From the IMG/VR virus record IMGVR_UViG_3300026534_000102, positions 1-64,000 of that record: 64,000 nucleotides of DNA, one strand, 5' to 3'. This document shows positions 11,779-38,600 of the stretch, one piece after another (position 1 is the first letter of the stretch; each line of letters opens with the position of its first letter). Made by a program: the position numbers and the translations under genes. A model generated the notes under the pieces. The model saw only the letters and a program-made list of their open reading frames with translations, did not search any database and had not been told where the DNA came from. Source of the DNA: a virus.

Positions 11779-12060
11779 CAGGTGCCCCATAACTTTCATT
11801 ATGGCCTGGACTATTCCTTCATCTAATTTATAAACATTAGACGGGAAGCGTATTATGGTAGAATTCTGCCACATATACATGTTTTAATTCATCTACCATC
11901 CTAGTGATCCTTTGCTTTAAACTTTAGGACTCTATGAGTCTCTAGACGGCTTACTCTTTTCAGATTCACCGTACGGCGTTGGCACCGGCCGAACCGCTGA
12001 GCGTTCACCGTATGAGCTTCCTTTTCACCTAATTATCACTAATTAGGGCGACCGTTTAAA
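11779..12060 (-). mobile_element. ORF-less group I intron (IA-like, 282 nt) in the tmRNA T-loop
   Basis: P1 CGAU/GUCG with U.G at the splice site; P2 CCTAATTA-GTGA-TAATTAGG; P3 GGAAGC/GCTTCC; P7 GAGACT/AGTC; P9 CCATAAT-GAAA-GTTATGG; terminal G. Confidence 0.9.
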
Positions 12061-12191
12061 ATCGAACCCGTGTCCGCAATGCTTCTTCTAAAGGGTTGAC
12101 GATGATAATTTATAAAACAAGAGGTCAATTAATGAAATACAAGGAAAAACGATGTAAGATTCTGTTGCTAGGTTCTTACTCACCCCAAAGC

Positions 12192-12275
12192 TTAGGCGAC
12201 CGCCAAGGCTTTATTATGTAGCAGCTCTACTCCTTCAAGAGCATCAGCTGCAAAGTCCATCATCGAGTTGTTGTC
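12192..12275 (-). other. tmRNA tag reading frame (A)DNNSMMDFAADALEGVELLHNKALAVA*
   Basis: resume codon inferred after TTTAATC; hydrophobic LAVA C-terminus. Confidence 0.75.
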
Positions 12276-12378
12276 GATTAAATTTTAAGTGTCCAATTTT
12301 AACGATGATCGGTACCGTCATCGCATCGAGTCTTTAGCGTCATTCACCACGTCGAAGCCGTTTCGCCCCCAGTTTATA

Positions 12379-12915
12379 CTAGAAAATCCCTATATTTACT
12401 CGTCTATCTTTCCAACACTCCTGGCAAAAATTATTATTTAATTTTCTCACTGGAGCATCATCGCTTCCATTATTTGTTATAACAAATGGTACCTCAATAT
12501 TATTATCAATAAACCATTCCTCTACAGCATTAATACGTTTTTGACCAAGTGTTTTATTATATGCGGCAGAGCCTCTGAAATCACAGAATGCAGACAAAGC
12601 TATGCCAGTAACATTATGTTTTTTAACATAAGCCCGTATTTCATTTAAAATATTTAATTGGTCCTTTTTAATATCGGCTTTGTCAAAATCAAAGAAAATT
12701 ACAAACAGCCTAAGTTCTTTAGTTGTTGCTACTTTTACAACCACATTTTTGGCGCCACATACCCATATAGGTGCCTCTGTATTATAATAATCAATAGACA
12801 TGAAGCATGGGGAATTTACTCCGTAAAAAGATCCAAAACTTGTGTCATCTCCTGCAAAACTGGTACCAGCAATCATACATATCATACTAAGCGCTACAAT
12901 AAAATATTTAAACAT
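12379..12915 (-). CDS. secreted OmpA-family (peptidoglycan-binding) protein
   Basis: signal peptide; IFFDFDKA, AFCDFRGSAAYNKTLGQKR, DRRV. Confidence 0.85.
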   Translation of the reverse strand: MFKYFIVALSMICMIAGTSFAGDDTSFGSFYGVNSPCFMSIDYYNTEAPIWVCGAKNVVVKVATTKELRLFVIFFDFDKADIKKDQLNILNEIRAYVKKHNVTGIALSAFCDFRGSAAYNKTLGQKRINAVEEWFIDNNIEVPFVITNNGSDDAPVRKLNNNFCQECWKDRRVNIGIF

Positions 12916-15208: not shown

Positions 15209-18200
15209 TTATTCCCTAAGGTTCTTAAATAACAATGGAATTCCTTCATCAAATCCTGACGTTGTAGTCAATCCTTCATTATATGCAAAAGAGCCTGAAA
15301 TTACAGTAGGCATAATTTTACCATAAATAAGATGATTATAGTCAGGTTTCGACTCGTCATCTAGACAAACAACATAATGATGCTCACCGTAAGGTGTTTC
15401 TAACCAGAAATAACCAGTACCACTTGCAGACACAGCACTATCAACCAATGAGTGATCACTGCTTCTATATAAAGCAACCTCCCTTTGAACAGGCTGACCC
15501 TTTTCTTTTACATATCCTTCTATGAAGTACTTATTGTACTCTGGCCACTGATAGACATAAGCTGCACTATTAGTATAACTACCACCAGTCTTACGGGCTA
15601 CAAGATTTGTGTTGTCTTTGAACCAAAAGTAGTAGCTTCCTTCACCCCAAGCATTAGAACTACCTGTATATACTCTTCCTTGCCCTAGCATGTCTGATGT
15701 TATTATCATAGATCGACTGATGTCTATCGGCTCTTTGAGCTTTAGTGGATAAACACCAGATGCAGTAGTTGACAAGCCTACAAAATACTTCCTACTCATA
15801 AAATCTAAATCTGTATACATCTCTATGATTTCGCAGGCCCTGTGTTCCAAAGAATATGAAGAATAAGACCGATCAAACCTGATTCTATCACCATATAAAT
15901 CATAAATTCTATAAGTGCCTGCATCTGGTCTATAGCTTGTATAACTATGAGAATATGACGCTAAAAGCATGCTTTTAGAAAAAACAGGTTTATACTCTAC
16001 GGACATATCTACAGTGTTATTACTGTTACTTGTTGTCTCATATAAATGCTGAACGGTCCAATAGTTACTCTCATTTATACACTCTACTACATACCAACTA
16101 ATATATATATTGTCGCTTGAACTATTTCGTCTAAAAGCTATTTCTTCATCACTATTGAAGTGCCCAACCACGGCATTATATGCTGGACCATCACCGTAAG
16201 AATCTGAAAAAGCATAAAATAATAGAAACGCTCTATCCAGGTCTACTTTATCAATAGAGAGTGTTATAGTATTACCATTTGAATATCCGAAGCCGTGCTG
16301 AATTTTAATGTTATCATTAAACTCGACTATGTATACGGTTACATATCGTGAAGCGGCGGTGCCGAATCGTACTCTAAAACAATCAGGGTCTTCAAATCGA
16401 TAAATTGCCCTTGATCGACGAATGGCATCAGCATTTGAGGTTTGATTTGAATAGTTCATAAACGGGATACATTGTTTGATGTTTTGTCCTTTAGTCAAGT
16501 ATGCCTCAATAAGAGAAGAACTTGCATACTGTTTAAATACTTGTAACGATCTAATAAACCCTTTTGTTGGTACAGAAGGTCTTATACTATGTGCATCCTG
16601 ATAATGATACCCAGTCCAATTTATTAATCCAAAATTACCCTGACTACTTGTACCTGAACCTCCTTTGGCAACCTCAACTGTTTTTGTTTCATAATCCGAT
16701 ATGCGAATTGTACCAATAGCCTGTGACCATGTTGCTGAACTTGTGGAACATATCATAGTACTGGACTGTATATGATTGAAACAAGTTAGACCATCCTCCT
16801 CTAAAAAGTTGCTTACATATGTGAAAGTGTTAGTGGTATCTGTCTGAACGGAGTAAAAAGTATCAGTATGCCTTTTCTCATCTAAAAATTTAACGAATGT
16901 AACAGTAAAGTAAGCTGTGTAAGTAGCATAACCGCGAAAACAATCAAATCTAAAATCCAACCATAATCCAGCGCGCCATGCGGAAGCATCCATTCTTGTA
17001 GAAGAATAATTAGTAGCATAGGATGCTATGGAAAATGAATTATGACTTGACCATATGTAGTCATCGTTGTAAAAACTAAGACGAGTAGAAGAAGATGAAC
17101 TATTAGCATGTCGAGTAACAAAGTTATCTTTAAGATCCTCTACCACGAAAATAGATGTATCAACCTCATAGCTTGTACCAGCTTTATAAAACTCTACATG
17201 AGAAGTGTCTGTAAATCTAACCCTCACCATGCTATAACTCGGCCGCGCATCCCCCGATGTAAATGTTTTGGATAAAATGAAGCATTTATTAACATCAGAG
17301 ACTTCTTCTATCGGCAATGTAGTAGTTGTTTGGCCTGATACATACGTATTCTTATGCTGTACCTTGACTTGATTTGGCCAAAATTCTACTACACTTATAT
17401 CAACTCGAAGCTGCCCAGCTGTACTCCACCTCTTAACACAAACTATACCAGGAGAAACCAAATAAACATTAGCCATTTGATCTCTTAGGTTATTACCCGA
17501 AGTACTACTAGTTGATGCGAATACAGCACAATTTTCCCAATTTTGTCCTTTAGATAACTTACGGCACGCAAAATTCCTTTCGCCACTTATACGGAAATTT
17601 TCAACGGATTTGACAAACGATTTCCCAGGACCATTACCTTCTGGTATAGGATTAGAATTAGATCCAATATCTATTTGTATACCCGCCCAATCAACTACTA
17701 TTAAATATGATGGGTATGCAGTGTAACCACTACTACTTCTTTCTAAGAAAATACCGTCATCATTATTTAATTTAGCAGATACAAACATCTGATCTATAGC
17801 GCTGGTAGACGAAGTATTAACACGACACACTCCTTGCGCCATAGCACATACTATAGTAGAAGTATCTGTATTAACTGCAAACGGGACTCTATTAGAATCA
17901 TTTCCGTAAGTAAGTGTGTTAGAAGTAGATGTTGAATCAACACTAACTAGTTGATGAATAAACGGTGTATAGATCTTTTCTTTATCAAGAAATTCGACCA
18001 CTTGATATGCCCAGTAGATAGTATAGGATGCGTATCCACGATCACATCTTATTGATCCGTCAGAATACAAAAATATCCTTGCCATTCCAGCATCTGGTCT
18101 GGTGGCTGAGTAGTTAGTTGCACAACTGCCTATAATAAAAGTTCGCAAAGGATCGACGCAGTGCCTATCGGGATGCACAATAGTTGTCTCGCCTGTACCA

Positions 18201-18754
18201 CTGTAACTATGAGAATGATGCGTAACTCTAAAATTATTTTTTAAATCCTCAAATAAATACCAATGTCCTTGACAAGAAGCACCTGCATCATTTCTGTAAA
18301 AATCAATAGTTGATTCATTAACAACACGGCCCCTAACACAATGGTATCTAAAGTTTTGACTAGTTGAAGAACTCCACCAGAAATGAGTCATTGCAGCCCG
18401 ATCCGTACCACTTAAAGTTGTTCCTAGTGTTATTGCATCAGTGATCTGATCATTTAAATCAAAGGATCCTTGTTGAACTCTTACCTCTTCGGGATTAAAT
18501 TCTACAATATAACATCTAATAGTTAATGCATTACTTCGTTGTTTAATACGTTTGAAAACAATATTGGCTGTACTTTCAAAATAGATATCAAGCATATGAG
18601 AGTCTTGATAGTCACTTCCTCCATGAGCAGTCATGAATGGTATACAATTACTCAAATCAGGGGTACCACTTAAAGTAACAGAGCCGCTTAAAGAAGTGGC
18701 ACCTAAAGTGTATTCTACAAATTGTACTGATTCTACCCAACTAGATACAGCCAT
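15209..18754 (-). CDS. large repetitive beta-rich virion/tail-associated protein
   Basis: three large internal repeats (V.SV/L...KGQN...C.PF...VEF...VQ.G); Ser/Thr/Tyr-rich. Confidence 0.65.
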   Translation of the reverse strand: MAVSSWVESVQFVEYTLGATSLSGSVTLSGTPDLSNCIPFMTAHGGSDYQDSHMLDIYFESTANIVFKRIKQRSNALTIRCYIVEFNPEEVRVQQGSFDLNDQITDAITLGTTLSGTDRAAMTHFWWSSSTSQNFRYHCVRGRVVNESTIDFYRNDAGASCQGHWYLFEDLKNNFRVTHHSHSYSGTGETTIVHPDRHCVDPLRTFIIGSCATNYSATRPDAGMARIFLYSDGSIRCDRGYASYTIYWAYQVVEFLDKEKIYTPFIHQLVSVDSTSTSNTLTYGNDSNRVPFAVNTDTSTIVCAMAQGVCRVNTSSTSAIDQMFVSAKLNNDDGIFLERSSSGYTAYPSYLIVVDWAGIQIDIGSNSNPIPEGNGPGKSFVKSVENFRISGERNFACRKLSKGQNWENCAVFASTSSTSGNNLRDQMANVYLVSPGIVCVKRWSTAGQLRVDISVVEFWPNQVKVQHKNTYVSGQTTTTLPIEEVSDVNKCFILSKTFTSGDARPSYSMVRVRFTDTSHVEFYKAGTSYEVDTSIFVVEDLKDNFVTRHANSSSSSTRLSFYNDDYIWSSHNSFSIASYATNYSSTRMDASAWRAGLWLDFRFDCFRGYATYTAYFTVTFVKFLDEKRHTDTFYSVQTDTTNTFTYVSNFLEEDGLTCFNHIQSSTMICSTSSATWSQAIGTIRISDYETKTVEVAKGGSGTSSQGNFGLINWTGYHYQDAHSIRPSVPTKGFIRSLQVFKQYASSSLIEAYLTKGQNIKQCIPFMNYSNQTSNADAIRRSRAIYRFEDPDCFRVRFGTAASRYVTVYIVEFNDNIKIQHGFGYSNGNTITLSIDKVDLDRAFLLFYAFSDSYGDGPAYNAVVGHFNSDEEIAFRRNSSSDNIYISWYVVECINESNYWTVQHLYETTSNSNNTVDMSVEYKPVFSKSMLLASYSHSYTSYRPDAGTYRIYDLYGDRIRFDRSYSSYSLEHRACEIIEMYTDLDFMSRKYFVGLSTTASGVYPLKLKEPIDISRSMIITSDMLGQGRVYTGSSNAWGEGSYYFWFKDNTNLVARKTGGSYTNSAAYVYQWPEYNKYFIEGYVKEKGQPVQREVALYRSSDHSLVDSAVSASGTGYFWLETPYGEHHYVVCLDDESKPDYNHLIYGKIMPTVISGSFAYNEGLTTTSGFDEGIPLLFKNLRE

Positions 18755-21094: not shown

Positions 21095-21265
21095 TTAAAT
21101 ATTCTCGGATTGAATTTTAATCTTAACTATATAAGACCTATTACATCTTGGACAATACGCTTGGTATACTTCATTATCAATTTTTTTATCAAAAGTTATA
21201 GTAACCTTGCACCTATGACAACTAAAGTTTCTCAATATTTCAATTTCATTCTTTTTCCACTCCAT
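21095..21265 (-). CDS. small zinc-ribbon protein (real start MEWKK)
   Basis: SD AAGGAG; CHRC...CPRC; the upstream part of the listed ORF overlaps tRNAs. Confidence 0.6.
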   Translation of the reverse strand: MEWKKNEIEILRNFSCHRCKVTITFDKKIDNEVYQAYCPRCNRSYIVKIKIQSENI

Positions 21266-21280
21266 ATAAAATTCTCCTTG

Positions 21281-21351
21281 CGGTCTGTAGGAGTATCGAT
21301 CTCCTGACTCCACCGTGACAGAGTGGCGTGATACCATTTCACCAACAGACC
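21281..21351 (-). tRNA. tRNA-Asp(GTC), atypical T-loop
   Basis: CCACT-CTGTCAC-GGTGG; T-loop ATCGATA. Confidence 0.85.
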
Positions 21352-21354
21352 CTG

Positions 21355-21426
21355 TGGTCGCTGCTGGATTTGAACCAGCGACATTCTGCTTGTAAGGCAG
21401 ACACTCTCCCACTGAGCTAAGCGACC
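21355..21426 (-). tRNA. tRNA-Val(TAC)
   Basis: TCTGC-CTTACAA-GCAGA. Confidence 0.92.
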
Positions 21427-21438
21427 TTGTGTATTTTT

Positions 21439-21495
21439 TGCAGGGGAAAGTTACGCCGCTTTCCCCTGCACGGCCAATAGCGGCGTCTACTGGCC
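21439..21495 (-). ncRNA. unassigned two-hairpin RNA with complementary (kissing) loops
   Basis: GGCCAGTAG-ACGCCG-CTATTGGCC G TGCAGGGGAAAG-CGGCGTAA-CTTTCCCCTGCA. Confidence 0.7.
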
Positions 21496-21504
21496 TAATA
21501 TTTG

Positions 21505-21577
21505 TGATACCGGGGAGAATTGAACTCACCATTTCCAGGTTGAAAGCCTGGTGTCCTAACCGTTAGACGACGGTACC
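21505..21577 (-). tRNA. tRNA-Glu(TTC)
   Basis: CCAGG-CTTTCAA-CCTGG. Confidence 0.9.
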
Positions 21578-21580
21578 GTG

Positions 21581-21662
21581 TGCTAGAGGAGAGATTCGAA
21601 CTCTCAAGCCTTACGGCACTGGTGTCTAAGACCAGCATGTATCCCAGTTCCATCACTCTAGC
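21581..21662 (-). tRNA. tRNA-Leu(TAG)
   Basis: CTGGT-CTTAGAC-ACCAG; variable arm GCC-GTAA-GGC. Confidence 0.92.
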
Positions 21663-21670
21663 TAAAGTAA

Positions 21671-21753
21671 GGTCGTAAGCAGGACTCACCGAAGATTCGC
21701 ATTCCATTCCCTCCTCGTGCCTAATACCAGTGGGTTTGTGGTTACTTACGACC
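21671..21753 (-). ncRNA. unassigned tRNA-sized structured RNA
   Basis: 11-bp closing stem GGTCGTAAGTA/TGCTTACGACC; inner stem CGAGGA/TCTTCG. Confidence 0.5.
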
Positions 21754-21757
21754 GAAG

Positions 21758-21857
21758 AATTGTGGGTACCAAACCTCACGATGCCAAGGGCTGATTTCTC
21801 AGATGTTTCCTTTATCTCAGAAGCGCTTCCCTCGGCCCCGATTCGAACAGGTTAACT
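21758..21857 (-). ncRNA. permuted tRNA-like (YrlA-like) RNA candidate
   Basis: T-arm CCTG-TTCGAAT-CGGG first, then closed stem GCCGAGGG/CCCTTGGC, then D-like GGT-TTGGT-ACC. Confidence 0.5.
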
Positions 21858-21867
21858 TGTTATTAAG

Positions 21868-22994: not shown

Positions 22995-23084
22995 TGGCGG
23001 AGGAGGTAGGATTCGAACCCACGGGGCTTGTTACACCTCACTGGTTTTCAAGACCAGCGCCTTAAACCACTCGGCCACTCCTCC
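22995..23084 (-). tRNA. tRNA-Ser(TGA)
   Basis: CTGGT-CTTGAAA-ACCAG; long variable arm; GCCA. Confidence 0.94.
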
Positions 23085-23099
23085 CCATTTATTATAATA

Positions 23100-24218
23100 T
23101 TAATGATGCACAATTATTGATTCAACACTTCTATTTTTCTGACGACCAGCATCAGTATCATTAGGAGCCAAAGGAGAGCTTTCTCCCAAAGGATCAATAA
23201 TAATACGATGCGCTCCAATACCCGCCTCTACTAGATATTTCTTTACAGCCTCGGCACGGCGTTTTGATAGTTCTAAATTATACTCAGCTGCGCCAACACT
23301 ATCAGCACGACCTTCTAATTTTAAATCTAATTCTCGATTAACAGACATAACTAGCGCCACATCATTTAAAATTGGATAGAATTCTGGCTTCACTTTATCA
23401 TTATCAAAATCAAATAGTGTAAGCTTAATAACCCAACAACCCTTTTCGTCCACCTTGGCTCCAATAGGAGTGTTAGGACACTGATCAGATGGATTCAACA
23501 CGCCGTCTTTATCGGCATCGCCAGCCGGTTTTAAAAATACAGATTTAATAAAATCACCCACATTAAAATTATCCATAGTTCTAGAAAAACCACAAATACC
23601 CGCTTTAGCCACATTATTAATTTCTCGTTGTCCAAATTTAGATGTACCAACAAAAATAGTATAAACACATAAATCTGGTCCCATTTCTTTCTTTAGTAAC
23701 TTCAATGCAGGAATAGCTTTTTCAATATATTCACCATCACTGATGATCACAAGAGCGGTTGTTCCCGGCAGACTCTTAATATCTTTTCTAAGTCCCAAAA
23801 TAGCTGCCGCTAAATCACTTGTGCCTCCTGTGCCTTTTATAGCATCTAATGCTAAATTAAACTTTTTTCGTGAATGAACCGGTGATAAATAATGTAATTT
23901 AGTAGAATTCCAGTCAAATAAACTCTGTCTTCCAAAAGTTCGTAAGGCACTCCCAAATCCCATGTCCATAGGAAGTGTGTTATTAAGGCCTCCGGCAACC
24001 ATTTTGGCTACCATAAACCGTGTGGTTTTCTTTGTATAAGCCTTTCCCATAGAACTGGAAGCATCTAGAATAACATACATATTGTTAAAATTACGCTCAT
24101 ATAGCTTACTATTTAAATATACACTTTTATAAAGGTTTTTATCAATAGTTTTATGAACAGGCGCGCAACCCACAGCCAATAGCGTCATTAGAAAAAAAAA
24201 TGCTATTTTTTTTACCAT
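23100..24218 (-). CDS. lipoprotein with vWA, TSP3-like and OmpA domains
   Basis: lipobox AVGC; ILDASSSM (MIDAS), IISDG; DADKDGV...DQCPNTP; FDFD...G.ADSVG...YN.ELS.RRA. Confidence 0.9.
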   Translation of the reverse strand: MVKKIAFFFLMTLLAVGCAPVHKTIDKNLYKSVYLNSKLYERNFNNMYVILDASSSMGKAYTKKTTRFMVAKMVAGGLNNTLPMDMGFGSALRTFGRQSLFDWNSTKLHYLSPVHSRKKFNLALDAIKGTGGTSDLAAAILGLRKDIKSLPGTTALVIISDGEYIEKAIPALKLLKKEMGPDLCVYTIFVGTSKFGQREINNVAKAGICGFSRTMDNFNVGDFIKSVFLKPAGDADKDGVLNPSDQCPNTPIGAKVDEKGCWVIKLTLFDFDNDKVKPEFYPILNDVALVMSVNRELDLKLEGRADSVGAAEYNLELSKRRAEAVKKYLVEAGIGAHRIIIDPLGESSPLAPNDTDAGRQKNRSVESIIVHH

Positions 24219-24658
24219 AATATTTGATCTCCTTTCTTATTAGTAGTGCTTTGTATTTTCTGTATCGATGCCGACATAACCCAAAAATCAGTATCATTAA
24301 TAGTACTTTTCAAATGGACAAAAGTCTGTGACGAATTAAATTTAGATATTCTTGTGTCAAGTATAATGAACCTCCCACCAGTGGGAAGTTTTAACAAGAA
24401 ACCCTGAGATTGTAATTCAGATGTAAGTTTAATTAGTATTCTAGGATCATCTGTTACTACTTGTTTGCATAAGACCAAAAATTCTAAAACATCAACATCT
24501 TCAGATAGATAACCATTAGAAATGGTTCTATACACAGTACTGCTCTTTCTATGAAAAAGAGACTTTACATCCACAGTTGTAAGTACACCCCCCGCTACAA
24601 TACCGATAACAAAAAACAAAAGCAGTGTTGGTAAAGCACGTTTAATAATCATGACCAT
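24212..24658 (-). CDS. membrane-anchored hypothetical protein
   Basis: N-terminal TM helix. Confidence 0.6.
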   Translation of the reverse strand: MVMIIKRALPTLLLFFVIGIVAGGVLTTVDVKSLFHRKSSTVYRTISNGYLSEDVDVLEFLVLCKQVVTDDPRILIKLTSELQSQGFLLKLPTGGRFIILDTRISKFNSSQTFVHLKSTINDTDFWVMSASIQKIQSTTNKKGDQILW

Positions 24659-25140
24659 AACTCATCTAAAACAAATTGTAATCCAGACCTTTTTAATTTT
24701 TTCTTCAAAAACTCTACTAAAGATGGGTTACGGGGGGATATATCGGGTTTTATATCACACCTATCGCCCTTTTTATTATTACAAGTTTTACAAGCTACAA
24801 CACAGTTTTCGAAAGTTGATCTACCGCCGCAAGCTTTGGGCAACACATGGTCAATAGTTAAGTCTTGTGTGCTTCCACAGTATTGACATGTGAAATTATC
24901 TCTAATGTACACATTTTTATATGAAAAAGGAACATTTTTACTCAACATCCCTTTCACAAATTTAAGTAGTCTAATGACCAATGGTACTTTAACCACAATT
25001 GATCTATCTACATTAGCTATCTCCTTGTCACTCTTACGTAAGCTTTCCGCTTTTTTCGTGATAATGTATGTAACGGCTTTTTTCCAAGAAACGGTGTTTA
25101 AATATGTATAATCCAAATTAAGAACGATTACGTTATTCAT
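24649..25140 (-). CDS. HNH endonuclease
   Basis: NVYIRD.FTCQYCG....LTIDHV.P...GG..TFEN.V.AC..CN.KK. Confidence 0.92.
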   Translation of the reverse strand: MNNVIVLNLDYTYLNTVSWKKAVTYIITKKAESLRKSDKEIANVDRSIVVKVPLVIRLLKFVKGMLSKNVPFSYKNVYIRDNFTCQYCGSTQDLTIDHVLPKACGGRSTFENCVVACKTCNNKKGDRCDIKPDISPRNPSLVEFLKKKLKRSGLQFVLDELWS

Positions 25141-25155
25141 CTATCTAATCCTCAA

Positions 25156-25329
25156 TCATTCAGTAGGTTTATTTTCTACAACTTGGCTAGAAGAGTCTGC
25201 GGGCTCTGATGGGTGCTTCTTAAACTTTGACATGATTTTATTCCAAAGCGATTTAACCCAAACTGGTTGAGGTAGAATATTCCAACCTATTATAAGACCT
25301 ACTATAAAACCAAAAATTAATTTACCCAT
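25156..25329 (-). CDS. small membrane protein (57 aa, not in the ORF track)
   Basis: MGKLIFGFIVGLIIGWNILPQP; SD GGAGG. Confidence 0.65.
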   Translation of the reverse strand: MGKLIFGFIVGLIIGWNILPQPVWVKSLWNKIMSKFKKHPSEPADSSSQVVENKPTE

Positions 25330-25904
25330 TATATACTTCCTCCTTTTATTATATGTAATGCTAAAGTAAAATCCTCAACAATTCTATCATAGTGTATATG
25401 CTTAGTACCACCGTTTCGTACAAAATACGAGGGGTGGTAGGTTGCTAACAAACTGATACTGTGTGTATATTGATATAATTTATTCCTCATTTTAAACATA
25501 GGTGTATTTAAAGGTTTGTTTAATAACGCCCTTGATGCGTCCGCCCCTAAACTTATTAACAATTTAGGGTTTACAATAGTTATTTCAGCAATAAAATAAG
25601 AAATACATGCAGCAATCCAACTATCTTTCAATGGAGTACCAGGAGCTACAAAACATTTAACAATATTAGTAATATAAACATCATCTAAAGATAATCCTGC
25701 ATCACTTAATACTCCATCCAATAACTGACCAGACTTTCCAACAAAAGGAACACCCTTTTCATTTTCTTTAGGGCCAGGACACATTCCACAAATAATAATA
25801 TCTGCTTTAGGATTTCCTTTTGAAAACACTGGAACGTTTCTATTTTTATATAGGTCGCATTGACAGCATGTACTAGCAGCATCGACCAATTCTTGAAATT
25901 CCAT
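25329..25904 (-). CDS. uracil-DNA glycosylase, family 4
   Basis: C..C.L, GMCPG..E...G.PFVG.SG, YITNIVKC, TYHPSY. Confidence 0.92.
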   Translation of the reverse strand: MEFQELVDAASTCCQCDLYKNRNVPVFSKGNPKADIIICGMCPGPKENEKGVPFVGKSGQLLDGVLSDAGLSLDDVYITNIVKCFVAPGTPLKDSWIAACISYFIAEITIVNPKLLISLGADASRALLNKPLNTPMFKMRNKLYQYTHSISLLATYHPSYFVRNGGTKHIHYDRIVEDFTLALHIIKGGSI

Positions 25905-25913
25905 TTTAACCCT

Positions 25914-26333
25914 TTATTTAGTAATCTGCTTTACGTAAAATTCGATATCCTTATCAGGATCTTTTATCGAAGCTTCAACAAGACGTTTTGTAGTAGCAAA
26001 AACATCAGAACTGTAAAGTTTCTTTTCTACATAAGATAATTCTATAAAAGCTTTGGCTTTTTTACTCACATCACAACCAAGTGCCTTGGCTTTACGATTG
26101 ATGCAGGCAGCAATCTTCTTTTTTGTCTCAGCAGAAAACTTAGATCTACTTAAATATGCCTTAGCAGCTGCTACATGTTTACAATCTGGAACAGGAAAGG
26201 ATCTACCAGGACCACAAAAAGTCCCACTTTTAAGTTTTTTTCTATCTTTGGTTGTTAATTTTTTACCCATCACTTCTCTAGCGCGCTCAATTAATTCACC
26301 CAAAGATTTGTCATTACAACTATCACAACCCAT
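25914..26333 (-). CDS. basic phage hypothetical protein
   Basis: R.KL....FCGPGRSFPVPD..H..AA pattern. Confidence 0.65.
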   Translation of the reverse strand: MGCDSCNDKSLGELIERAREVMGKKLTTKDRKKLKSGTFCGPGRSFPVPDCKHVAAAKAYLSRSKFSAETKKKIAACINRKAKALGCDVSKKAKAFIELSYVEKKLYSSDVFATTKRLVEASIKDPDKDIEFYVKQITK

Positions 26334-26354
26334 TTTTACCTCCTCTTACTTACA

Positions 26355-26954
26355 CTATTTTGCTTTGATTGGAAAGATAGAATTAAACTCCTCCATAAAT
26401 TCTTCGGGAGTATAAGGATCTAACCAGGCATAAACCAATCCATTCTCTTTCAAAACTTTTTTACAACCATTTGCCATATCTTTTATAAGAGGTAATGTAT
26501 CTTCGTCTATTCTATCGTAAAAATCCAAGAATATAAAATCGTATTTAAACTCAGTAGCATATAAATAACTTAAACCATCAATATGCAATACTATATGTTT
26601 TTTATTTTTTATTATCTTCTTATAATCTTTTGTATATAAATGGTCATAAATCTGTTCATGAACTCTTATCACATCCATGTTTTGTTCAACCGTAGTGACT
26701 GAATTGACTTTAGGAAAAGTTAAAAGATAACGAGACATGACCCCTAAACCCAAACCGATCTCTAGTACATCACCATTAGGTTTATCTCCTATTTGATTCA
26801 TGTAATCAAAAATTTCACTTTCTAATGCCCAAAGGGTATGTCCTTTTCCTATTTCTAAAAATAATTCATTATTCATTTTATATACTTTAACATCATTACT
26901 TTTAGCCAATAATTCACCATCTTCAAAATAAATTAGTCCTTTATTTCTCGACAT
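26355..26954 (-). CDS. class I SAM-dependent methyltransferase (spermidine-synthase-like fold)
   Basis: VLEIGLGLG, VTTVE, YDFIFLD. Confidence 0.8.
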   Translation of the reverse strand: MSRNKGLIYFEDGELLAKSNDVKVYKMNNELFLEIGKGHTLWALESEIFDYMNQIGDKPNGDVLEIGLGLGVMSRYLLTFPKVNSVTTVEQNMDVIRVHEQIYDHLYTKDYKKIIKNKKHIVLHIDGLSYLYATEFKYDFIFLDFYDRIDEDTLPLIKDMANGCKKVLKENGLVYAWLDPYTPEEFMEEFNSIFPIKAK

Positions 26955-27234
26955 TTGTTTCCTCTGAAGGTTTCTCTACATTATTTTTGGGCTTCTGTTT
27001 GAGAGGAGACTCAAAATTAAACATAAGATGTATCTCCACACCAGTATATTCACTTAAATCATATTCTTCAGCACCTTCATATTGTACTTTGATTGGGTGT
27101 ATATACTTTATACCTACGTTGCCACTAGCCGAAAAAGGCAAAAACGTATTTAATAATGCATTAACTTCTTGTTTTACATAACTTTCCCAAGTTGTTTTTT
27201 CCTCAAGTCGTTCAGTTTCAGTTGTTTTATCCAC
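26941..27234 (-). CDS. hypothetical protein
   Basis: operonic ORF. Confidence 0.55.
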   Translation of the reverse strand: MDKTTETERLEEKTTWESYVKQEVNALLNTFLPFSASGNVGIKYIHPIKVQYEGAEEYDLSEYTGVEIHLMFNFESPLKQKPKNNVEKPSEETNVEK

Positions 27235-27236
27235 TC

Positions 27237-27725
27237 CTACAACCCCCTTTTTATTTCTTTTTTTGAAGCCTTTGCCAATTCTCTTTCCTGCTCATAAACA
27301 TCTACTACAAGAGTTGATAGCTTCCGAGCCCATTCAGCATCATCCTCGTTCAATTTTAATTCTGCATAAAAATCCTCTATTTCATGCCCAATGACTTTTG
27401 GAATACCGTTTTCATTAATAAAAACATGTCTCAACTCATGAGAAATAATCCTCTTTTTATCCAAATCGCTAGCCAATTCCCATGCTTTCTTATCTACAGT
27501 TAACACATAATCATAACCATCAACTGCGATAGCGTCCTTTGAAAAAAACTTGATCTTCTCACTTGCTGTCTCTATGGAAGCAAGCATTATTTTACCTTGC
27601 TTAATTCTCTTTTTAAGATCAAAAATAAGTTTAAACTTAAGATTCCCATACGCAGGAAACCGTTCTTCTAAAATTTCCAAAAACACTTCCACTAAGCTAT
27701 CATCAGCTTCTTCATACCTTACCAT
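27237..27725 (-). CDS. putative phage metallopeptidase
   Basis: W...D..RIISHELRH...HEIEDF. Confidence 0.75.
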   Translation of the reverse strand: MVRYEEADDSLVEVFLEILEERFPAYGNLKFKLIFDLKKRIKQGKIMLASIETASEKIKFFSKDAIAVDGYDYVLTVDKKAWELASDLDKKRIISHELRHVFINENGIPKVIGHEIEDFYAELKLNEDDAEWARKLSTLVVDVYEQERELAKASKKEIKRGL

Positions 27726-27751
27726 AATTTCTCCTTTTCCATTACTTCATA

Positions 27752-27994
27752 TTAATTTTTATAGTGTTTGTCAAAATGTTTTTTCAACTTTAACAAGTCA
27801 GACATTAGGACTTTTGATGCACTAATTAGCTCATCATCTTTTTTAGATTTTTCTTTGCTCTTTGTTTTTACTTCGCTCACGTGACTTTTTCCTTTTTTAT
27901 CATAACAAATATGAATATATTTACGATTCTTTAATTTCTTAGTAACTACTTTCCCACCTGCATTTACACATTTTATAAAATCCGCGGGCATCAT
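27752..27994 (-). CDS. small basic hypothetical protein
   Basis: MPADF.KCV..GG.V.T pattern. Confidence 0.6.
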   Translation of the reverse strand: MMPADFIKCVNAGGKVVTKKLKNRKYIHICYDKKGKSHVSEVKTKSKEKSKKDDELISASKVLMSDLLKLKKHFDKHYKN

Positions 27995-28006
27995 TTCCCT
28001 CGCTTT

Positions 28007-28028
28007 GTAAAAGGCGCGGGCCTTTTAC
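28007..28028 (-). terminator. hairpin immediately after the hsp20 stop
   Basis: GTAAAAGGC-CCGC-GCCTTTTAC. Confidence 0.6.
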
Positions 28029-28520
28029 TTAATCTATTTTAATTTTAATTGAGTCTTTTTTATCTTCAAGAAGCAGCTTACTAATGGAACATACCACAAG
28101 TCCATCTTTGTACGAACACTCAATATCGCTACCATCAACTTTTTCAGGAAATCTTACAACACGACTAAAAGAACGTCGTGCAATTTCTCTGTAAATATAA
28201 TCATCCTCCGATTCTTTAGACTCATCTCTCTTATCTGCTTTAATCAAAAGACAATTATCCCGCAATTCAAGATCGATATCTGATTTATCGAATCCCGCAA
28301 CTGCTATTTCTACAACGTATTTATCATCCAAGGATCTTACATTAATTTTGGGAAATCTTCCTTTGGGCTGGATTTCCTCAAAAATTTTAGCATCCCAATT
28401 ATGGCCGCTCCAAAAGTAATCCATCATTCTATCCAACTGAGAAAAAATGTCGGGGAAACGACCCATAGGAAATGTTCTGCCCAAAGGGCCAGCTACATTT
28501 GTAGTTATAAGGTCTTTCAT
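28029..28520 (-). CDS. small heat-shock protein (Hsp20/IbpA-like)
   Basis: FPKINV, EIAVAGF, YIYREIARRSF.R...., YKDGLV. Confidence 0.93.
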   Translation of the reverse strand: MKDLITTNVAGPLGRTFPMGRFPDIFSQLDRMMDYFWSGHNWDAKIFEEIQPKGRFPKINVRSLDDKYVVEIAVAGFDKSDIDLELRDNCLLIKADKRDESKESEDDYIYREIARRSFSRVVRFPEKVDGSDIECSYKDGLVVCSISKLLLEDKKDSIKIKID

Positions 28521-28577
28521 AGTCTTATTCCTCCTTATTATTCAAAGATTTATAAGACCCGCGCCAATTACTCTAAT

Positions 28578-28605
28578 AAAATAAGACATAATTATTGTTT
28601 GTCAA
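28578..28605 (-). promoter_or_regulatory. promoter, weaker copy of the repeated motif, upstream of hsp20
   Basis: TTGACAAACAATAATTATGTCTTATTTT. Confidence 0.5.
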
Positions 28606-28952
28606 GTTAAATTTTCGATAAATTTAATAAAATTCTTACTGTTGTATGGAAACAAATAAGCCCGTGGCAACAAACTAGAAATCAACATTGCAGCGGGCGT
28701 ATTCCAGCTATGAACAACAACACAAGTAGAGTTGTTCTTATGATCATTAGTAGCTAAAAAGTTAGCAACATCAACACCCTCTCCGGCGTTAATTCCTAAA
28801 TCATTATCTAAAAAAATGACATCATACTTAGTCTTAATTAACGCATTTATAGCTTCCACAGCAGTTTGATATATGTCGCAACTCGTGGCCCCTAATTTGT
28901 TAATAAAAAACTTTACTCTATGACTATCATCTTCAAGTATAAAAAAATTCAT
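28602..28952 (-). CDS. stand-alone divergent receiver (REC-like) domain
   Basis: FILEDD..R, IFLDNDLG...G.DV, VHSWN. Confidence 0.75.
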   Translation of the reverse strand: MNFFILEDDSHRVKFFINKLGATSCDIYQTAVEAINALIKTKYDVIFLDNDLGINAGEGVDVANFLATNDHKNNSTCVVVHSWNTPAAMLISSLLPRAYLFPYNSKNFIKFIENLT

Positions 28953-28970
28953 AATTCTACAAAACCTTGA

Positions 28971-29450
28971 TTAAACTACACTGCCTGTAGGGATCCGTTG
29001 ACTAATATCAAACATGCTATAATGATCGACATTTTCAACGGATTTTATAAGTTTGGTAATATTAACTAGTGAACATATATATCCGATTATTCTATCAGCT
29101 TCTATTATAGGTGTTTTAGAATGTAAGTATTTTGATCCGCCCACATCAAAAACCTCTTTAAGAAAACCAGAACAATTCACACAAGAAGCGCAGGCGCAAT
29201 TTTCTTTTTTATCTACTTTACCGACTATAGAATGACAGGGCTGTCCCTCAATCTCTTTTTTATTAAGATTTAATTCTTTCTCCATAGCAATATTAACTAA
29301 TTCAATATCGCCGTCTTCATTTGTAATGAAAAGAGGAATTGGTAAAATATCTAATATATTCCGCCACCTCTTAACTACCAAACTAATATGTTGCTCTTGT
29401 TCCAATAATGATTCTGTAAGTTTTCTCAGTTCTGCTAAATCACTATTCAT
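28971..29450 (-). CDS. PAS-domain protein
   Basis: ILD.LP.PLFI.N.DG.IELVN......IEG.PCH...C..C. Confidence 0.8.
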   Translation of the reverse strand: MNSDLAELRKLTESLLEQEQHISLVVKRWRNILDILPIPLFITNEDGDIELVNIAMEKELNLNKKEIEGQPCHSIVGKVDKKENCACASCVNCSGFLKEVFDVGGSKYLHSKTPIIEADRIIGYICSLVNITKLIKSVENVDHYSMFDISQRIPTGSVV

Positions 29451-29463
29451 AGTAAGTATCCCT

Positions 29464-29979
29464 TTATTTTAAAGCCACTTTAAATAATACTGCGCAAAGT
29501 AATCCAAGGAGAACTCCCCAAACAGCTAACTTACCTCTTGATACCCATACTTCCTTTGAAAGAGGATCCAATTTAGTATCAAGTTTGGTATCGAGCTTGG
29601 TCTTAAGTTTTTCCATTTTTGCATTCACGTCATCTACAAATTTTTTATCCTTATCTGCTCTATTCATATGCTCCTCTATAAACTTTTTATCTATGGTTTT
29701 AATTAAATCCTCGGCTTCTTTAATTCTAGTTTCTAAAGCAGCAAATAATTCTTTAATTTCCTGTTTAAATTTATCTATTTCACCAGAAGTATAATTTCTC
29801 ATACTATCTTTTAACTCATAGTGCTCTTTAACTGCTTTATTAATTTCACTAAGCAACTCTTGTTTGTTTTTTACAACCTCATCTGCCAATTTTTCTACAT
29901 TAAACAAAACATGTTTAATCCATGTGTTTTGTAATGTCTGTGCTTCTTCTGGCTCAACATTTAATATACTCGGACTCAT
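29464..29979 (-). CDS. coiled-coil protein with a C-terminal TM helix
   Basis: heptads, KLDT repeats, hydrophobic C-terminus. Confidence 0.65.
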   Translation of the reverse strand: MSPSILNVEPEEAQTLQNTWIKHVLFNVEKLADEVVKNKQELLSEINKAVKEHYELKDSMRNYTSGEIDKFKQEIKELFAALETRIKEAEDLIKTIDKKFIEEHMNRADKDKKFVDDVNAKMEKLKTKLDTKLDTKLDPLSKEVWVSRGKLAVWGVLLGLLCAVLFKVALK

Positions 29980-29981
29980 TA

Positions 29982-30200
29982 TTATTTACTTTCAGAACTG
30001 CCTTCGGATTTAAGTTTTTTTCCACAAAAAGGACAAAAAATTATTTTTATACCATAACGTGACTTTACAATTCTATTATTACATGTACTTAAATCTAACC
30101 ATGAGATAACCCATCCATAAACTTCATCATGAACAAAAACAGAAGGATTGGTTTTACTTAGTTTGTCCCAATCATCACAATTACAAAAATTAATGTTCAT
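29982..30200 (-). CDS. small zinc-binding protein
   Basis: CNC...IIFCPFCGKKL. Confidence 0.65.
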   Translation of the reverse strand: MNINFCNCDDWDKLSKTNPSVFVHDEVYGWVISWLDLSTCNNRIVKSRYGIKIIFCPFCGKKLKSEGSSESK

Positions 30201-30206
30201 AGGATT

Positions 30207-30689
30207 TTACAATATGTTCCCTCTTAATTTACTACCCTGGTATGGAATGCTAAAGTCATTTTTGCGGCCAAAAGAACTCCAACCTTCTACAGGCATATAA
30301 ATTTCAACATCAGGTTCGGCCTGTTTCGTATCAGAAGTGTCAGCCGAAGGTGCACTGAAAAAAGCGCCACTTTCTTTGGACATCCCTAATCTAATAAACT
30401 GATCATCTCTAACTCGTTTAACCGTAGAATCCTCTAAGTATGGGTTTAAATCTCTCTCAGCTTCTTGCCATTCAGGGATAATACCTGCCCAATTAGACAA
30501 TCGTTCTTTATCTGCAAAACCTAAACTTGTTTTAGTATAGTCATCCCCTCGTCTAAGACCTACATACATAGCATTAAAATCAGAAACCTTCATATCAGCA
30601 TTGCGAGATTGATTCCCAATACCTAGTGTTTCATCATCTACTCCACTCTGTGGGATTTGAAAAAAATCGAATTGATTACCATTACTCAT
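30207..30689 (-). CDS. hypothetical protein
   Basis: SD AAGGAG; upstream TGGTATAAT extended -10. Confidence 0.65.
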   Translation of the reverse strand: MSNGNQFDFFQIPQSGVDDETLGIGNQSRNADMKVSDFNAMYVGLRRGDDYTKTSLGFADKERLSNWAGIIPEWQEAERDLNPYLEDSTVKRVRDDQFIRLGMSKESGAFFSAPSADTSDTKQAEPDVEIYMPVEGWSSFGRKNDFSIPYQGSKLRGNIL

Positions 30690-30779
30690 AATTGCATCTC
30701 CTTATTTAAAAGTTTGGCCGTTAAAACTCAGCCTCTACTATTATTATACCACAAAAACAATAAAATATTAAATATTTTT

Positions 30780-31631
30780 TTATTTTTCCAGAAATGAGTA
30801 TACCCTGACTTTCAAACCACTATTAGCCAATAAATAACTAGAATTAAGTTCGTCATAGAAAGTCATCCCAGTAACAATGATTTCTTCAACCCCAGCATTA
30901 ATTATCTCAACAAGACAAGGGCTACATGGAATATCGCAAGTCATATACATTTTAGTATCAATTGTAGAAATACCTTGTCTCGCAGCATTGATTAAAGCAT
31001 TCCGTTCAGCATGCCCTGCCACACATAGCTCCAACCCTTCTCCTGATTTAAATCCTAAAACATGGCGTGGGCATTTTTCCACAACGGTGTCTTTTGTTGA
31101 AAATTGTTTTTTGAAATTTGGATCAATTTCCCACCGTTTATCACAAGTAGGAATCCCACGTGGTGGTCCATTATATCCAGTACTAATAATACTCTTATCT
31201 TTAACCAGTATCGCGCCAATCTGTCTAGAAAAACACTTGGAATTTGACGCCACCACCTTACATACATTGAAAAAATATTTATCCCACCTGTCTCTATTCA
31301 TTCCTTTATCCATATCACCGCTCCTTAAATTAATTTTACAGACTTTTTTAAATTGTACGATATCTATTTGATAAATATATAACAACAATAAAGCCACTAT
31401 ACATTTAATATCCTTTAAACCAGTTAAATCAATAACATTTGATTTAAAATCCGAATAAGAAGCTCCTATAACATTTGACGTTTTCAATAAATTAAGCACA
31501 TCTATAGGATTTATCTGAGTATTAACATTAAACATCTCTTCAACATAGTTTCTTAATTTATCAACGACCAATTCTTCTTTTAAAAAAGAGACCTTTAAAT
31601 CATCTTTAAAATCATCGTTCAACTGAATCAT
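30780..31631 (-). CDS. dCMP deaminase with an N-terminal extension (internal start at 31313)
   Basis: WDKYF, S.C..RQIGA, STGYNG.P, HAE.NA, PCSPC. Confidence 0.9.
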   Translation of the reverse strand: MIQLNDDFKDDLKVSFLKEELVVDKLRNYVEEMFNVNTQINPIDVLNLLKTSNVIGASYSDFKSNVIDLTGLKDIKCIVALLLLYIYQIDIVQFKKVCKINLRSGDMDKGMNRDRWDKYFFNVCKVVASNSKCFSRQIGAILVKDKSIISTGYNGPPRGIPTCDKRWEIDPNFKKQFSTKDTVVEKCPRHVLGFKSGEGLELCVAGHAERNALINAARQGISTIDTKMYMTCDIPCSPCLVEIINAGVEEIIVTGMTFYDELNSSYLLANSGLKVRVYSFLEK

Positions 31632-35648: not shown

Positions 35649-38600
35649 TTAAATCTCCTTTTTACACTTATTGCAAATCAATTTTGTTTTGTATTTCTTA
35701 TCTGGAACAAAAATCATTTCATCATTTCCACAATCACATTCACTTTTCAACCAACAAGGCCCAATTAAAGCATCAGTTTCCATAGGAATTTTGTGGAAGT
35801 AATGTCCAAACCCATCAATTAATGAATTTGCTACAAGTTTACCCACGTCATGTCTTTCTTCATGTTTACACTCTACAACTACTTCATCATGAACTGTTAA
35901 TATCAATTTAGCATCATAAGAGCTTTTTTCTAGTCTGTCAACTAAGTAAATCATAGATTGTTTAATAGTATCTGCATTTGAATTGTGGACTAACACACCA
36001 TTAGCTGTAAAATAATGAATATTATTGCACATTAAATCATAAGTCTTTTCTTTTCCTTTATAACTTATGTGTTTTTTCTTACAAAAATCAAAATTCAAAA
36101 ACCGAGAAAGTAGTTGTTTATTCGGTCCATTAGGAAGTTTATAATAAAATTTTCTCCAACTCACATAAGAACTTTTACCTAACTTAAATCTTCTTAAATG
36201 TGCTTTCTCTGGAAAGGACAATGATGCATAACGATCTTTGTTTTCCCTGAATGTTTTTTCTATAAGTTTTGGTATAAACTCAGGCACAACACCCCCATCA
36301 CCAAACATTGGAATGGAACTTTCTTCGTCAAGAATTTTATCTTTAATTTTTGTAGAAAAACCCACATATTTTTTAAATCTACTATTAAATCTTTTAGGAA
36401 TCTGTATTTTATAAACTCTATCATATATTTTCAAGTTAGAATTTATACCTAACGAAAATAGAAGTTGATGTACTGACTTTGCAAGCTGTTCAGAAGTAGT
36501 AGTAAAACTTGGACCTGATTCTTTAGTCATCTCACCACCTGTTGAAAACAGCCCATTTAACAAGGCCCCTTTATTTTCTATAGTTTCAGTATGAAAATAA
36601 TCAGGAATAGCTTTTTTATGATGAGACACATAATCAAGCCCTATATGTTTTAGAAAGCCACGTATTACTACAGAATTAACTTGTGACCAGGGTAACGGGT
36701 CCCTATTGGCATCATTTTTATGGCGCATCCTTATTTTTGATTTATACCCGAACTGATCGTACACCGCATTATTAAATTTCTCAAATAGCTCTTTTTGATT
36801 TTGTGGACAAACAAAAGCAAAGTGGTTGTGTTTTGTGTAACTACCGTTCCCTATCAGACACCCTATAATAAAAGCCAAATCAGCATTCATTTTAGAAGGT
36901 AAATTATAATTTACATAAGTTTCTCGGCGGTGGCCTTTTTCATACTTAAATCCTGACAAATTAGTAGTTCGGCCTGAAACAATATTTAAAGGAATTATTA
37001 ACAAATCGTCTTCTTCTAAGTCAGCTACCTTTACATCTTCTATATTATAATTGTCACCATATTGCTTGCATATGGGAATTTTATGATCCGATGTAATATC
37101 CAGTGTAGCTCCATTAGATAAAGTAAGTGTGAATACCTCCTTTTCTCCAGAATATACTCCAATAGCATTATCACTGCCTATACCTGTTTCTAAAGAACAC
37201 TGTACATTCTTAAGAGAGCCTATCTTACCCTGCCCTTTAATTATAGTATCGAATGACAAGCAACCTTGAATAGGGGCATTTTTAGCCCTGCGTTCAACAC
37301 TACTTTTTAATCTCCCGAAATCTGGATTGCCATACTCTGGTAAAGTGTAATATCTTTTTCTTCCGCTTATAGATCTGCTAAACCTATTCATGACTGCGTC
37401 TTTAGCAGCTTTTTCTAAATATTTTTTAACTCCTCTGTATCTTTTAAAGTATGTTGTTATCATCTGATCAGCTTTTGCTTCAGATATTTTTAGCCGCCGC
37501 GCGAGACCATATTTAGAAAGTCCATAACAATTATGAACCACAAAACCATTTGCAAGAAAATATGGATGTTCTTCTACAGATATATCATATACTTTCTTTA
37601 ATCCTTTACTTTTTATAGATCTGATTTCCAAAGGAACTATGCCTTTTTCGTAAAGCATCTTAAAAAGAGAATCATATTTAGAAAGCTCTTTTAAATAAAT
37701 ATCTCCGACAGAATCAGAAAATCTGCTTTTATAAAACCTGTCCTTTAATTGTTTACTTATTTCATAATTATGTACTGTGTGGTCTATTCTATCTTTATAT
37801 TTGCCAATAAAATATGAGGAAACATTATAATGCACTTCACTCTTACACTTACAATTTTTTAAATCTGTAACAAACCCAATATATTTAATAAACAATTCAG
37901 AACTATTTTGAGATATAACAGATAAAACATAATATGTATTATTATATCCTTCACGAGATTCCTCTATGATAGAAGACACAATACCTAAGTTTAAAAGCAT
38001 TAATTGTACGTCTTTAACAAGGTTATAAGAAGCACTACTATAGGTTATCTTATAACCAGCCCCATTTAACTTTACAGAACCATCCCCTTCGAATAACCAC
38101 TTTAAAAACTCTGTTTGATAACCTAAAGGTGCCCTTTTAATACAGCCCGGAACACCAACATCAAAAGTTTTATTTTTATTATTTATATCACAAACATTAA
38201 CAAGCCATTCTGCAAACAGTACTGAATTAATAGTATATCTTGTATACGTTCCCTCAGTCTTAGAAATGCGATCCTTAAATAAACGAAACAATAATTTATC
38301 TATTTTTGAAATGAATTCTTTATTTTCATTACTAAACCCAAAGGAAACAGTACTATAATGTTCGCGCCCTTTGGCTTTAAGTATACTTCCCTCAGCCACA
38401 AACAACCCTAAAAAAGCAGCTACATCTTTATTCATTTCATCTGGCAAAGGCATAGGTTTATAATTGGTTCCTTCAACTACTTTAAAATCACCAAATTTTG
38501 GTAACATTTCTGGAAACAAAAAAGAACCTTTTTTAATACAAATCAAGTCTTGTTTTATATCAATTTTATTTAATGGAACATCTACATACTCTCCATTAGC

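Follow-up and report, generated by a model that had tools for sequence, protein, structure and literature searches.

The tRNA array and its genomic setting

The stretch of DNA analysed here, hereafter the window, comprises the first 64 kb (64,000 nucleotides) of a 115-kb virus record in the IMG/VR collection (IMGVR_UViG_3300026534_000102), which is estimated to be 44% complete. The length of the record, taken together with this estimate, indicates a jumbo phage. The genome has a G+C content of ∼34% and all its genes are carried by the minus strand. A hydrothermal-vent metagenome is the only sequencing run that holds the full stretch and is probably its source. A second run holds a short identical piece from elsewhere in the tRNA array and does not cover the element described below; none of the runs that hold the sequence is on record as RNA.

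In the interval from 10.5 to 23.1 kb of the record, ARAGORN detects 19 minus-strand tRNA genes, with small ORFs and non-tRNA stretches in between. Two of these genes frame the element under study, and both are called by ARAGORN and Rfam. The upstream neighbour, tRNA-Glu(UUC) (21504–21577, minus strand; Rfam tRNA score 57.7 bits), has no encoded CCA: its discriminator A is followed by CAAAU. The downstream neighbour, tRNA-Val(UAC) (21354–21426, minus strand; 74.5 bits), is strongly conserved in an alignment with two metagenomic relatives, L055 and L056. The spacer that separates the two genes spans 77 nt (21427–21503), whereas many other junctions of the array measure 2–10 nt. Two ORFs that reach into this region, 21095–21532 and 21495–21779, were considered as coding sequences and rejected as spurious, as both overlap tRNA genes.

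The array contains another non-tRNA block, 204 nt in length, between tRNA-Cys and tRNA-Leu(UAG) (21663–21866, minus strand). A near-identical block is present at L056:4181–4384, and in L055 the same position is occupied by a shorter one of 109 nt. The 204-nt block includes a T-loop-like GGTTCGAATC and has no Rfam match at E ≤ 1. At 12058–12362 (minus strand) the Rfam tmRNA model scores 43.5 bits, below its gathering score of 47, and ARAGORN calls no tmRNA; at the syntenic location L055:12502–12824 ARAGORN reports a tmRNA with a 27-residue tag. This pattern fits a tmRNA gene that is interrupted or unusual in the window.

Directly downstream of tRNA-Thr lies an ORF of 1181 aa (15209–18754, minus strand) that belongs to no Pfam or PHROG family. 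Its product has more than 50 full-length metagenomic relatives, with identities of 26–65% and many invariant aromatic and glycine positions, and it looks internally repetitive, with recurring motifs of the VEF..P..V.VQ type. The gene just upstream of the array (23100–24218, minus strand) encodes a protein of 372 aa that has a VWA-like domain at its N terminus and a domain of the OmpA family at its C terminus; a second, shorter and paralogue-like ORF is located at 12379–12915. The DNA polymerase ORF (35649–40112, minus strand, 1487 aa) displays polymerase matches that are split by stretches assigned to helicase, recombinase and unknown-function families, an arrangement that suggests inteins or inserted domains.

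A double hairpin with complementary loops

A preliminary description of this locus had placed a 57-nt element between tRNA-Glu and tRNA-Val and had read it as two hairpins of 9 and 12 bp, one nucleotide apart, whose loops are exact complements. The analysis bears out each of these points: the element occupies 21495–21439 on the minus strand and its minimum free energy (MFE) fold reproduces the two hairpins exactly. The minus-strand sequence of the spacer is AAAUAUUA-GGCCAGUAG[ACGCCG]CUAUUGGCC-G-UGCAGGGGAAAG[CGGCGUAA]CUUUCCCCUGCA-AAAAAUACACAA, the loops being set in brackets. It opens with a single-stranded A/U flank of 8 nt (AAAUAUUA, 21496–21503), which leads into hairpin A (21472–21495). The 9 bp of this hairpin, one of which is a G·U pair, are formed by a 5′ arm at 21495–21487 and a 3′ arm at 21480–21472, and enclose the loop ACGCCG (21486–21481). 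A single unpaired nucleotide, the G at 21471, connects it to hairpin B (21439–21470), a perfect helix of 12 bp with its 5′ arm at 21470–21459, its 3′ arm at 21450–21439 and the loop CGGCGUAA at 21458–21451. Six nucleotides of this second loop, CGGCGU (21458–21453), are the complement of loop A. The spacer closes with a single-stranded, A-rich flank of 12 nt (AAAAAUACACAA, 21427–21438), which ends at the RNase P site of tRNA-Val.

In ViennaRNA the minus-strand MFE structure consists of exactly the two hairpins, has an energy of −36.6 kcal/mol and accounts for 71% of the ensemble; the fold has a z score of −6.54 and none of 200 shuffled sequences folds as well. The plus-strand fold is weaker (−33.4 kcal/mol), because the G·U pair turns into an A·C mismatch on that strand, an asymmetry that the earlier reading had already noticed. 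The core of the element contains ∼63% G+C, compared with ∼34% for the genome. The loop sequences ACGCCG and CGGCGU form an exact 6-nt complement with a duplex energy of −9.1 kcal/mol, and a complement of this length arises in 0.07–0.13% of trials with random loops of 6 and 8 nt. At the DNA level, ACGCCGC...GCGGCGT constitutes an inverted repeat. A partner hairpin acting in trans was considered and dropped: within the 115-kb record, the words CGCCG and CGGCG crown a comparably stable stem nowhere else, which leaves loops A and B as each other's only evident partner.

Several other identities were considered and discarded. The element is not a tRNA or a tRNA remnant: it is absent from the ARAGORN and Rfam tRNA calls and its sequence holds no GTTCRA T-loop. 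Neither is it an intrinsic terminator, in keeping with the preliminary description: hairpin B is directly followed by A6, no hairpin is followed by a U-tract on either strand, and no terminator-like site exists on either strand near 21439–21495. A repeat or mobile element was likewise rejected, the sequence being single-copy in the 115-kb record and lacking a target-site duplication.

A search of 16 kb around the array with Rfam 15 at E ≤ 1 returned tRNAs and the sub-threshold tmRNA, and no match overlapping 21427–21503. The same 16-kb region yielded no SRP or Alu match and no match to GOLLD or ROOL. When the element or its homologue (see below) was searched alone at E ≤ 10, the results were confined to miRNA and cow-rumen-4 hairpin noise at 15–20 bits, against thresholds of 48–90. 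There is no Rfam pRNA match to the region or to the element, which consists of two hairpins only. The covariance model built in this analysis, R1, scores at most 7 bits against the region of bacteriophage T4 that contains rnaC and rnaD. The preliminary description had been unable to assign the element to a known family, and that position is upheld by these covariance-model searches, in which the element reaches no gathering threshold of Rfam. Together with its homologue it makes up a new family that is very small, at two members, and distinct in its minimal architecture.

A homologue in the same slot and selection on the RNA

An alignment of 16 relatives of the 1181-aa protein encoded downstream of the array led to 21 metagenome contigs, three of which (L054, L055 and L056) carry the same tRNA array. 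The L054 contig ends before the Glu/Val junction. One homologue of the double hairpin was found, at L055:4680–4740, and it resides in the same slot: in this relative, tRNA-Glu is followed by 75 nt and then by tRNA-Val. The L055 spacer folds into a hairpin of 8 bp, a single A and a hairpin of 11 bp, with an energy of −32.6 kcal/mol and a z score of −6.5; the antisense fold reaches only −24.5 kcal/mol. Hairpin B is followed by UAAACUAU in L055, and the linker nucleotide, G in the window, is the A just mentioned.

The stems of the two copies have diverged in a manner that preserves pairing. Between the window and L055, hairpin A shows two double compensatory changes, in which a C-G pair becomes U-A and an A-U pair becomes G-C, together with two one-sided, wobble-compatible changes, from G·U to G-C and from U-A to U·G. 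The apical G-C pair of this hairpin is the sole pair broken in L055, where the 6-nt loop accordingly widens to 8 nt. Hairpin B has exchanged its basal U-A pair for A-U, one of its G-C pairs has become G·U, and one A-U pair has been deleted on both sides. In total, three pairs show double compensatory changes, three carry a one-sided change that is wobble-compatible, one is deleted as a pair and one is broken. This count was made by hand from both folds, because the MAFFT alignment puts the paired deletion of hairpin B in the wrong place. For 10 random stem substitutions, the probability of breaking at most one pair is P = 1.8 × 10⁻⁴, and that of obtaining at least three double compensatory pairs is P = 0.004. 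Read in the tRNA sense, every wobble pair is a G·U.

The loops are the best-conserved part of the element, as 13 of their 14 nucleotides are the same in the window and in L055: ACGCCG is identical, and CGGCGUAA and CGGCGAAA differ at one position. The cores CGCCG of loop A and CGGCG of loop B are unchanged. By comparison, the single-stranded flanks on both sides, AAAUAUUA and AAAAAUACACAA in the window, cannot be aligned with those of L055, and the neighbouring 1181-aa protein is 55% identical. As the stems are compensated and the loops are kept where the flanks are unalignable and the neighbouring protein has diverged to this extent, purifying selection, judging from this pair of sequences, acts on a real RNA structure of the tRNA strand, and the loops matter for their sequence. 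The preliminary description had taken the lone G·U pair as a pointer to selection on the RNA; that suggestion is strengthened by the compensatory stem changes and by the occurrence of G·U pairs solely in the tRNA sense in both homologues.

The sole loop difference, a change from U to A in loop B, drops the sixth kissing pair (A-U) without compensation, so that the complementarity of 6 bp in the window is reduced in L055 to the retained 5-bp core, which is all-GC and has an energy of −7.4 kcal/mol. In this comparison, which involves one homologue, the cores are invariant and the terminal A-U pair is lost: the loops display conservation without covariation. Kissing is therefore plausible but unproven.

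Distribution and cassette behaviour

The three arrays compared around this junction (window 21270–21580, L055:4590–5005 and L056:4540–4740) differ by whole cassettes. The tRNA-Glu of L055 belongs to a sequence lineage distinct from that of the window and L056, and L055 alone has an extra spacer of 108 nt between tRNA-Val and tRNA-Asp. In L056 a 5′-truncated tRNA-Asp remnant is fused to a tRNA-Trp that ARAGORN misses.

The double hairpin is absent from L056, in which tRNA-Glu and tRNA-Val are 3 nt apart, and a three-way alignment reveals a clean presence/absence boundary at the tRNA ends. The 3-nt junction identifies the element as a discrete, dispensable cassette and indicates that tRNA production is independent of it. 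The 1181-aa proteins of L055 and L056 share 67% identity, and either shares 55% with that of the window. As L055 and L056 are thus closer to each other, the element reaches across the deepest split of the group and lacks a representative in one inner lineage. Its absence from L056 is most simply explained by loss; exchange of cassettes between arrays may be an alternative, since the arrays have clearly been reshuffled.

Wider searches have located no additional member. Neither the GenBank phage collection nor IMG/VR holds a close relative, and a distant search matched tRNAs only. Exact and degenerate pattern scans of IMG/VR gave no match for hairpin A and none for hairpin B with free loops, and scans of the same collection with a 15-mer pattern and a two-loop pattern gave chance matches only, all of which failed the fold filter. 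Among 185,579 GTDB species genomes the two-loop pattern occurs at chance sites, mostly in high-GC genomes, and none of these folds like the element. A pattern anchored on tRNA-Val reached two unrelated phages, and relatives identified through the helicase gene have no comparable tRNA array. With covariance model R1, the phage's own record of 115 kb, L053, L054 and L056, and five related viral records of 116–269 kb yielded no additional copy. An unrelated genome, L307, contains at ∼20–101 (minus strand) a tandem unit, AGGGGAAGCGGCGAGACGCCGCUUCU, repeated ∼50 nt apart and forming a long hairpin of −50 kcal/mol; shared GC words alone brought it up, and it is not homologous to the element.

Proposed excision and self-association

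The element may be viewed as a small structured RNA gene, or cassette, located in a tRNA-sized slot of a tRNA operon. The double hairpin would be transcribed together with the tRNAs from the minus strand, a natural assumption in view of the gene order, the shared strand and the 2–3-nt junctions elsewhere in the array. Established tRNA processing would then release the spacer: the 3′ end of tRNA-Glu would be matured by an activity like that of RNase Z or RNase E, and the 5′ end of tRNA-Val by RNase P. A piece of ∼77 nt would thereby be set free, which exonucleases would trim to the two GC-rich hairpins, leaving an RNA of ∼57–60 nt.

The reading that we tentatively favour, and that we judge plausible if just short of probable, is that the excised spacer RNA self-associates through its GC-rich loops, mainly between molecules, into a closed dimer or a chain. 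The cores CGCCG of hairpin A and CGGCG of hairpin B would pair with each other: each exposes five unpaired G/C nucleotides in an AT-rich genome, and the two are conserved and mutually complementary. Loop A of one copy would engage loop B of another to produce either a closed antiparallel dimer or head-to-tail chains. The dimer can be pictured as two rods lying side by side, each composed of stem A (9 bp), the kiss (6 bp) and stem B (12 bp), 27 bp in total, with the 1-nt linkers joining them at both ends. Such assembly would yield an RNA particle that resists nucleases, resembles double-stranded RNA and might serve as a decoy or a scaffold. In kissing complexes such as TAR-TAR* and ColE1 RNAI/RNAII, the loop-loop helix forms a roughly end-to-end stack with the two stems. 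On geometric reasoning of our own, pairing between molecules is more likely than pairing within one, because the linker is 1 nt long, the kiss takes up every nucleotide of loop A and both stems are entirely regular. The preliminary description had named phi29 pRNA as a model for intermolecular loop pairing, and the proposal made here follows the same principle. The conservation of the loops would equally fit the binding of a protein or pairing to a third RNA.

A bolder version of the same idea, which we consider rather unlikely, holds that the element is a minimal natural self-assembling RNA tile, a 57-nt dumbbell with complementary GC loops that is set free in many copies from the tRNA precursor, joins loop A to loop B between molecules to build closed dimers, rings or filaments resembling double-stranded RNA, and acts as a miniature counterpart of GOLLD and ROOL. 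If true, the tile would perhaps be a decoy or sponge for host factors that sense or cut RNA.

Self-association between copies has as its first rival a kiss within a single molecule, in which the two hairpins would lie side by side and form a compact, pseudoknot-like knot that acts as a roadblock or recognition shape. Loop complementarity and loop conservation support this arrangement equally well. A precedent is provided by the enterovirus oriR, in which hairpins X and Y of the 3′ UTR are joined by a 6-bp kiss (domain K) and the kiss helix is stacked on one hairpin (PMC9189406): adjacent hairpins can thus kiss over 6 bp. The put RNA of phage HK022, whose hairpins are one nucleotide apart, indicates that a V shape is possible (PMC9378689), and both stems of the element shorten together in L055, from 9 and 12 to 8 and 11 bp. 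The geometry is less accommodating: all 6 nt of loop A are used in the window, loop B has 2 spare nucleotides, none of them on the 5′ side, and the hairpins are tethered by 1 nt. End-to-end stacking, reasoning from the known kissing complexes, would set the stem bases far apart, and the perfectly regular stems offer no bulge or kink for bending. We therefore regard the intramolecular kiss as possible but improbable.

A similarly low probability attaches to the proposal that the double hairpin acts in cis, as a processing or insulating element within the precursor, and that the complementarity of its loops has no function of its own. It might prevent misfolding of tRNA-Glu with tRNA-Val, stop 3′–5′ exonucleases, or present its loops to a phage or host protein that reads them. 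The location is apt, exactly between two tRNAs of an operon that is cut by RNase P and 3′-end nucleases; the AU-rich single-stranded flanks are typical of RNase E sites, and the conserved loops are possible protein contacts. Yet 2–3-nt spacers suffice in L056 and at most other junctions of the array, which implies that no insulator is needed. This proposal also leaves the exact loop complementarity as an unexplained coincidence, of the order of 0.1%, and five unpaired G/C nucleotides per loop are unusual for plain roadblock hairpins.

Untranslated operons are natural targets of Rho, and the tRNA/small-RNA transcript is long and untranslated. The nascent double hairpin could in principle bind RNA polymerase in the manner of put and suppress pausing and Rho-dependent termination, and the anatomy corresponds: put RNAs measure ∼60–70 nt and contain two stem-loops with a single unpaired G at the junction (PMC8632103, PMC9378689). 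We hold this to be very improbable. In HK022 put it is bulges, a triplex and non-canonical pairs in irregular stems that form the RNA polymerase interface, and the G35A substitution is inactive (PMC9378689); in contrast, both stems of the element are perfect, being regular A-form in the window and in L055, and its junction G is replaced by A in L055. Moreover, the element lies in the middle of an operon, where a weak 9/12 match ∼265 nt upstream is the closest promoter-like site on its strand. Covariance model R1 has no match in the immunity region of HK022, its best score across 23000–31000 being 9.8 bits (E = 0.14), loop complementarity is no feature of put, and the element is absent from L056.

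Finally, the inverted repeat and the indel-like presence and absence among relatives might point to a feature acting at the DNA level, such as a recombination scar, a cruciform or a protein operator whose half-sites are inverted copies of ACGCCG, or to a functionless chance pair of hairpins. This reading is barely credible, and the covariation in the stems already largely refutes it: the RNA sense, as opposed to the antisense, retains its pairing through compensatory and wobble-only substitutions. The core is conserved where the flanks are unalignable, and the element has neither further copies nor a target-site duplication.

Significance and comparison with known systems

That phage tRNA clusters harbour additional small RNAs of obscure purpose has been established since the work on T4, and recent cryo-EM has revealed that large RNAs situated beside phage tRNA islands build cages by means of kissing loops. 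The self-associating spacer RNA proposed here would be approximately the simplest possible version of such an assembly: two hairpins and one loop-loop pair, small enough for easy synthesis and mutation. If the loops pair between molecules, the element would provide a tractable system for asking why phages derive self-associating RNAs from their tRNA operons, and RNA nanostructures would gain a building block of natural origin; without such pairing, it amounts to a further conserved pair of spacer hairpins. With two known members, the element is a lead.

The closest parallels in genomic setting are rnaC (species 1, 139 nt) and rnaD (species 2, 119 nt) of T4, likewise non-tRNA RNAs inside a phage tRNA cluster. 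Like the element, they are encoded on the tRNA strand, abut tRNA genes and are presumably cut from the same precursor. They are twice as long and bear no similarity to it in sequence or structure; moreover, stable accumulation is documented for the T4 RNAs, whereas the element is described here from its sequence. Functional RNAs are also released by RNase E from the transcribed spacers of bacterial tRNA operons (PMC9514646). The 3′ETS-leuZ sponge and the ITS fragments of Escherichia coli are small RNAs of this type, freed by tRNA-processing nucleases (PMC9514646), which act through single-stranded seed pairing with Hfq-dependent sRNAs and, unlike the element, do not form a double hairpin with self-complementary loops.

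Self-association through loops has precedents of much larger size. GOLLD and ROOL, which are often found near phage tRNA islands, form homo-oligomers via intermolecular kissing loops (10.1101/2024.12.08.627333). They share with the element the tRNA-island setting and, if the proposal is correct, the kissing of loops between copies, but they are 500–800 nt or more in length, contain dozens of helices and assemble into cages of 8 to 14 subunits, compared with 57 nt and two hairpins. The pRNA of phi29 carries two mutually complementary loops that pair between molecules and close dimers and rings. The hexameric pRNA ring is described in PMC3753930. Like the element it is a small phage RNA with two mutually complementary loops; unlike the element, it measures ∼120–170 nt, is built around a three-way junction, relies on a 4-nt loop complement, binds the packaging motor and is encoded at a genome end.

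In its dimensions the element most resembles the enterovirus oriR, whose stems of ∼8 and 12 bp are close to its 9 and 12 bp. The resemblance is an architectural analogy only: oriR is the replication origin of a eukaryotic plus-strand RNA virus, located before the poly(A), and its loops have spare nucleotides. HK022 put is likewise a phage double hairpin, of ∼65–70 nt and with one unpaired junction nucleotide, and differs from the element in its irregular stems, its required junction G, its promoter-proximal position and its lack of loop complementarity. RNA dumbbells designed with kissing loops at both ends form rings by self-assembly (PMC11637918). These nanoring monomers, with loops of the ColE1 RNAI/RNAII type, have the topology that the element would adopt if coaxially stacked, with the chain ends in mid-helix. 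They are man-made, use 7-nt loops chosen for a 120-degree bend and require mixed monomers, whereas the element carries both partner loops. The kind of RNA to which the element belongs is thus already known, from T4 rnaC and rnaD, from the tRNA spacer RNAs of bacteria and from the kissing-loop RNAs of phage tRNA islands.
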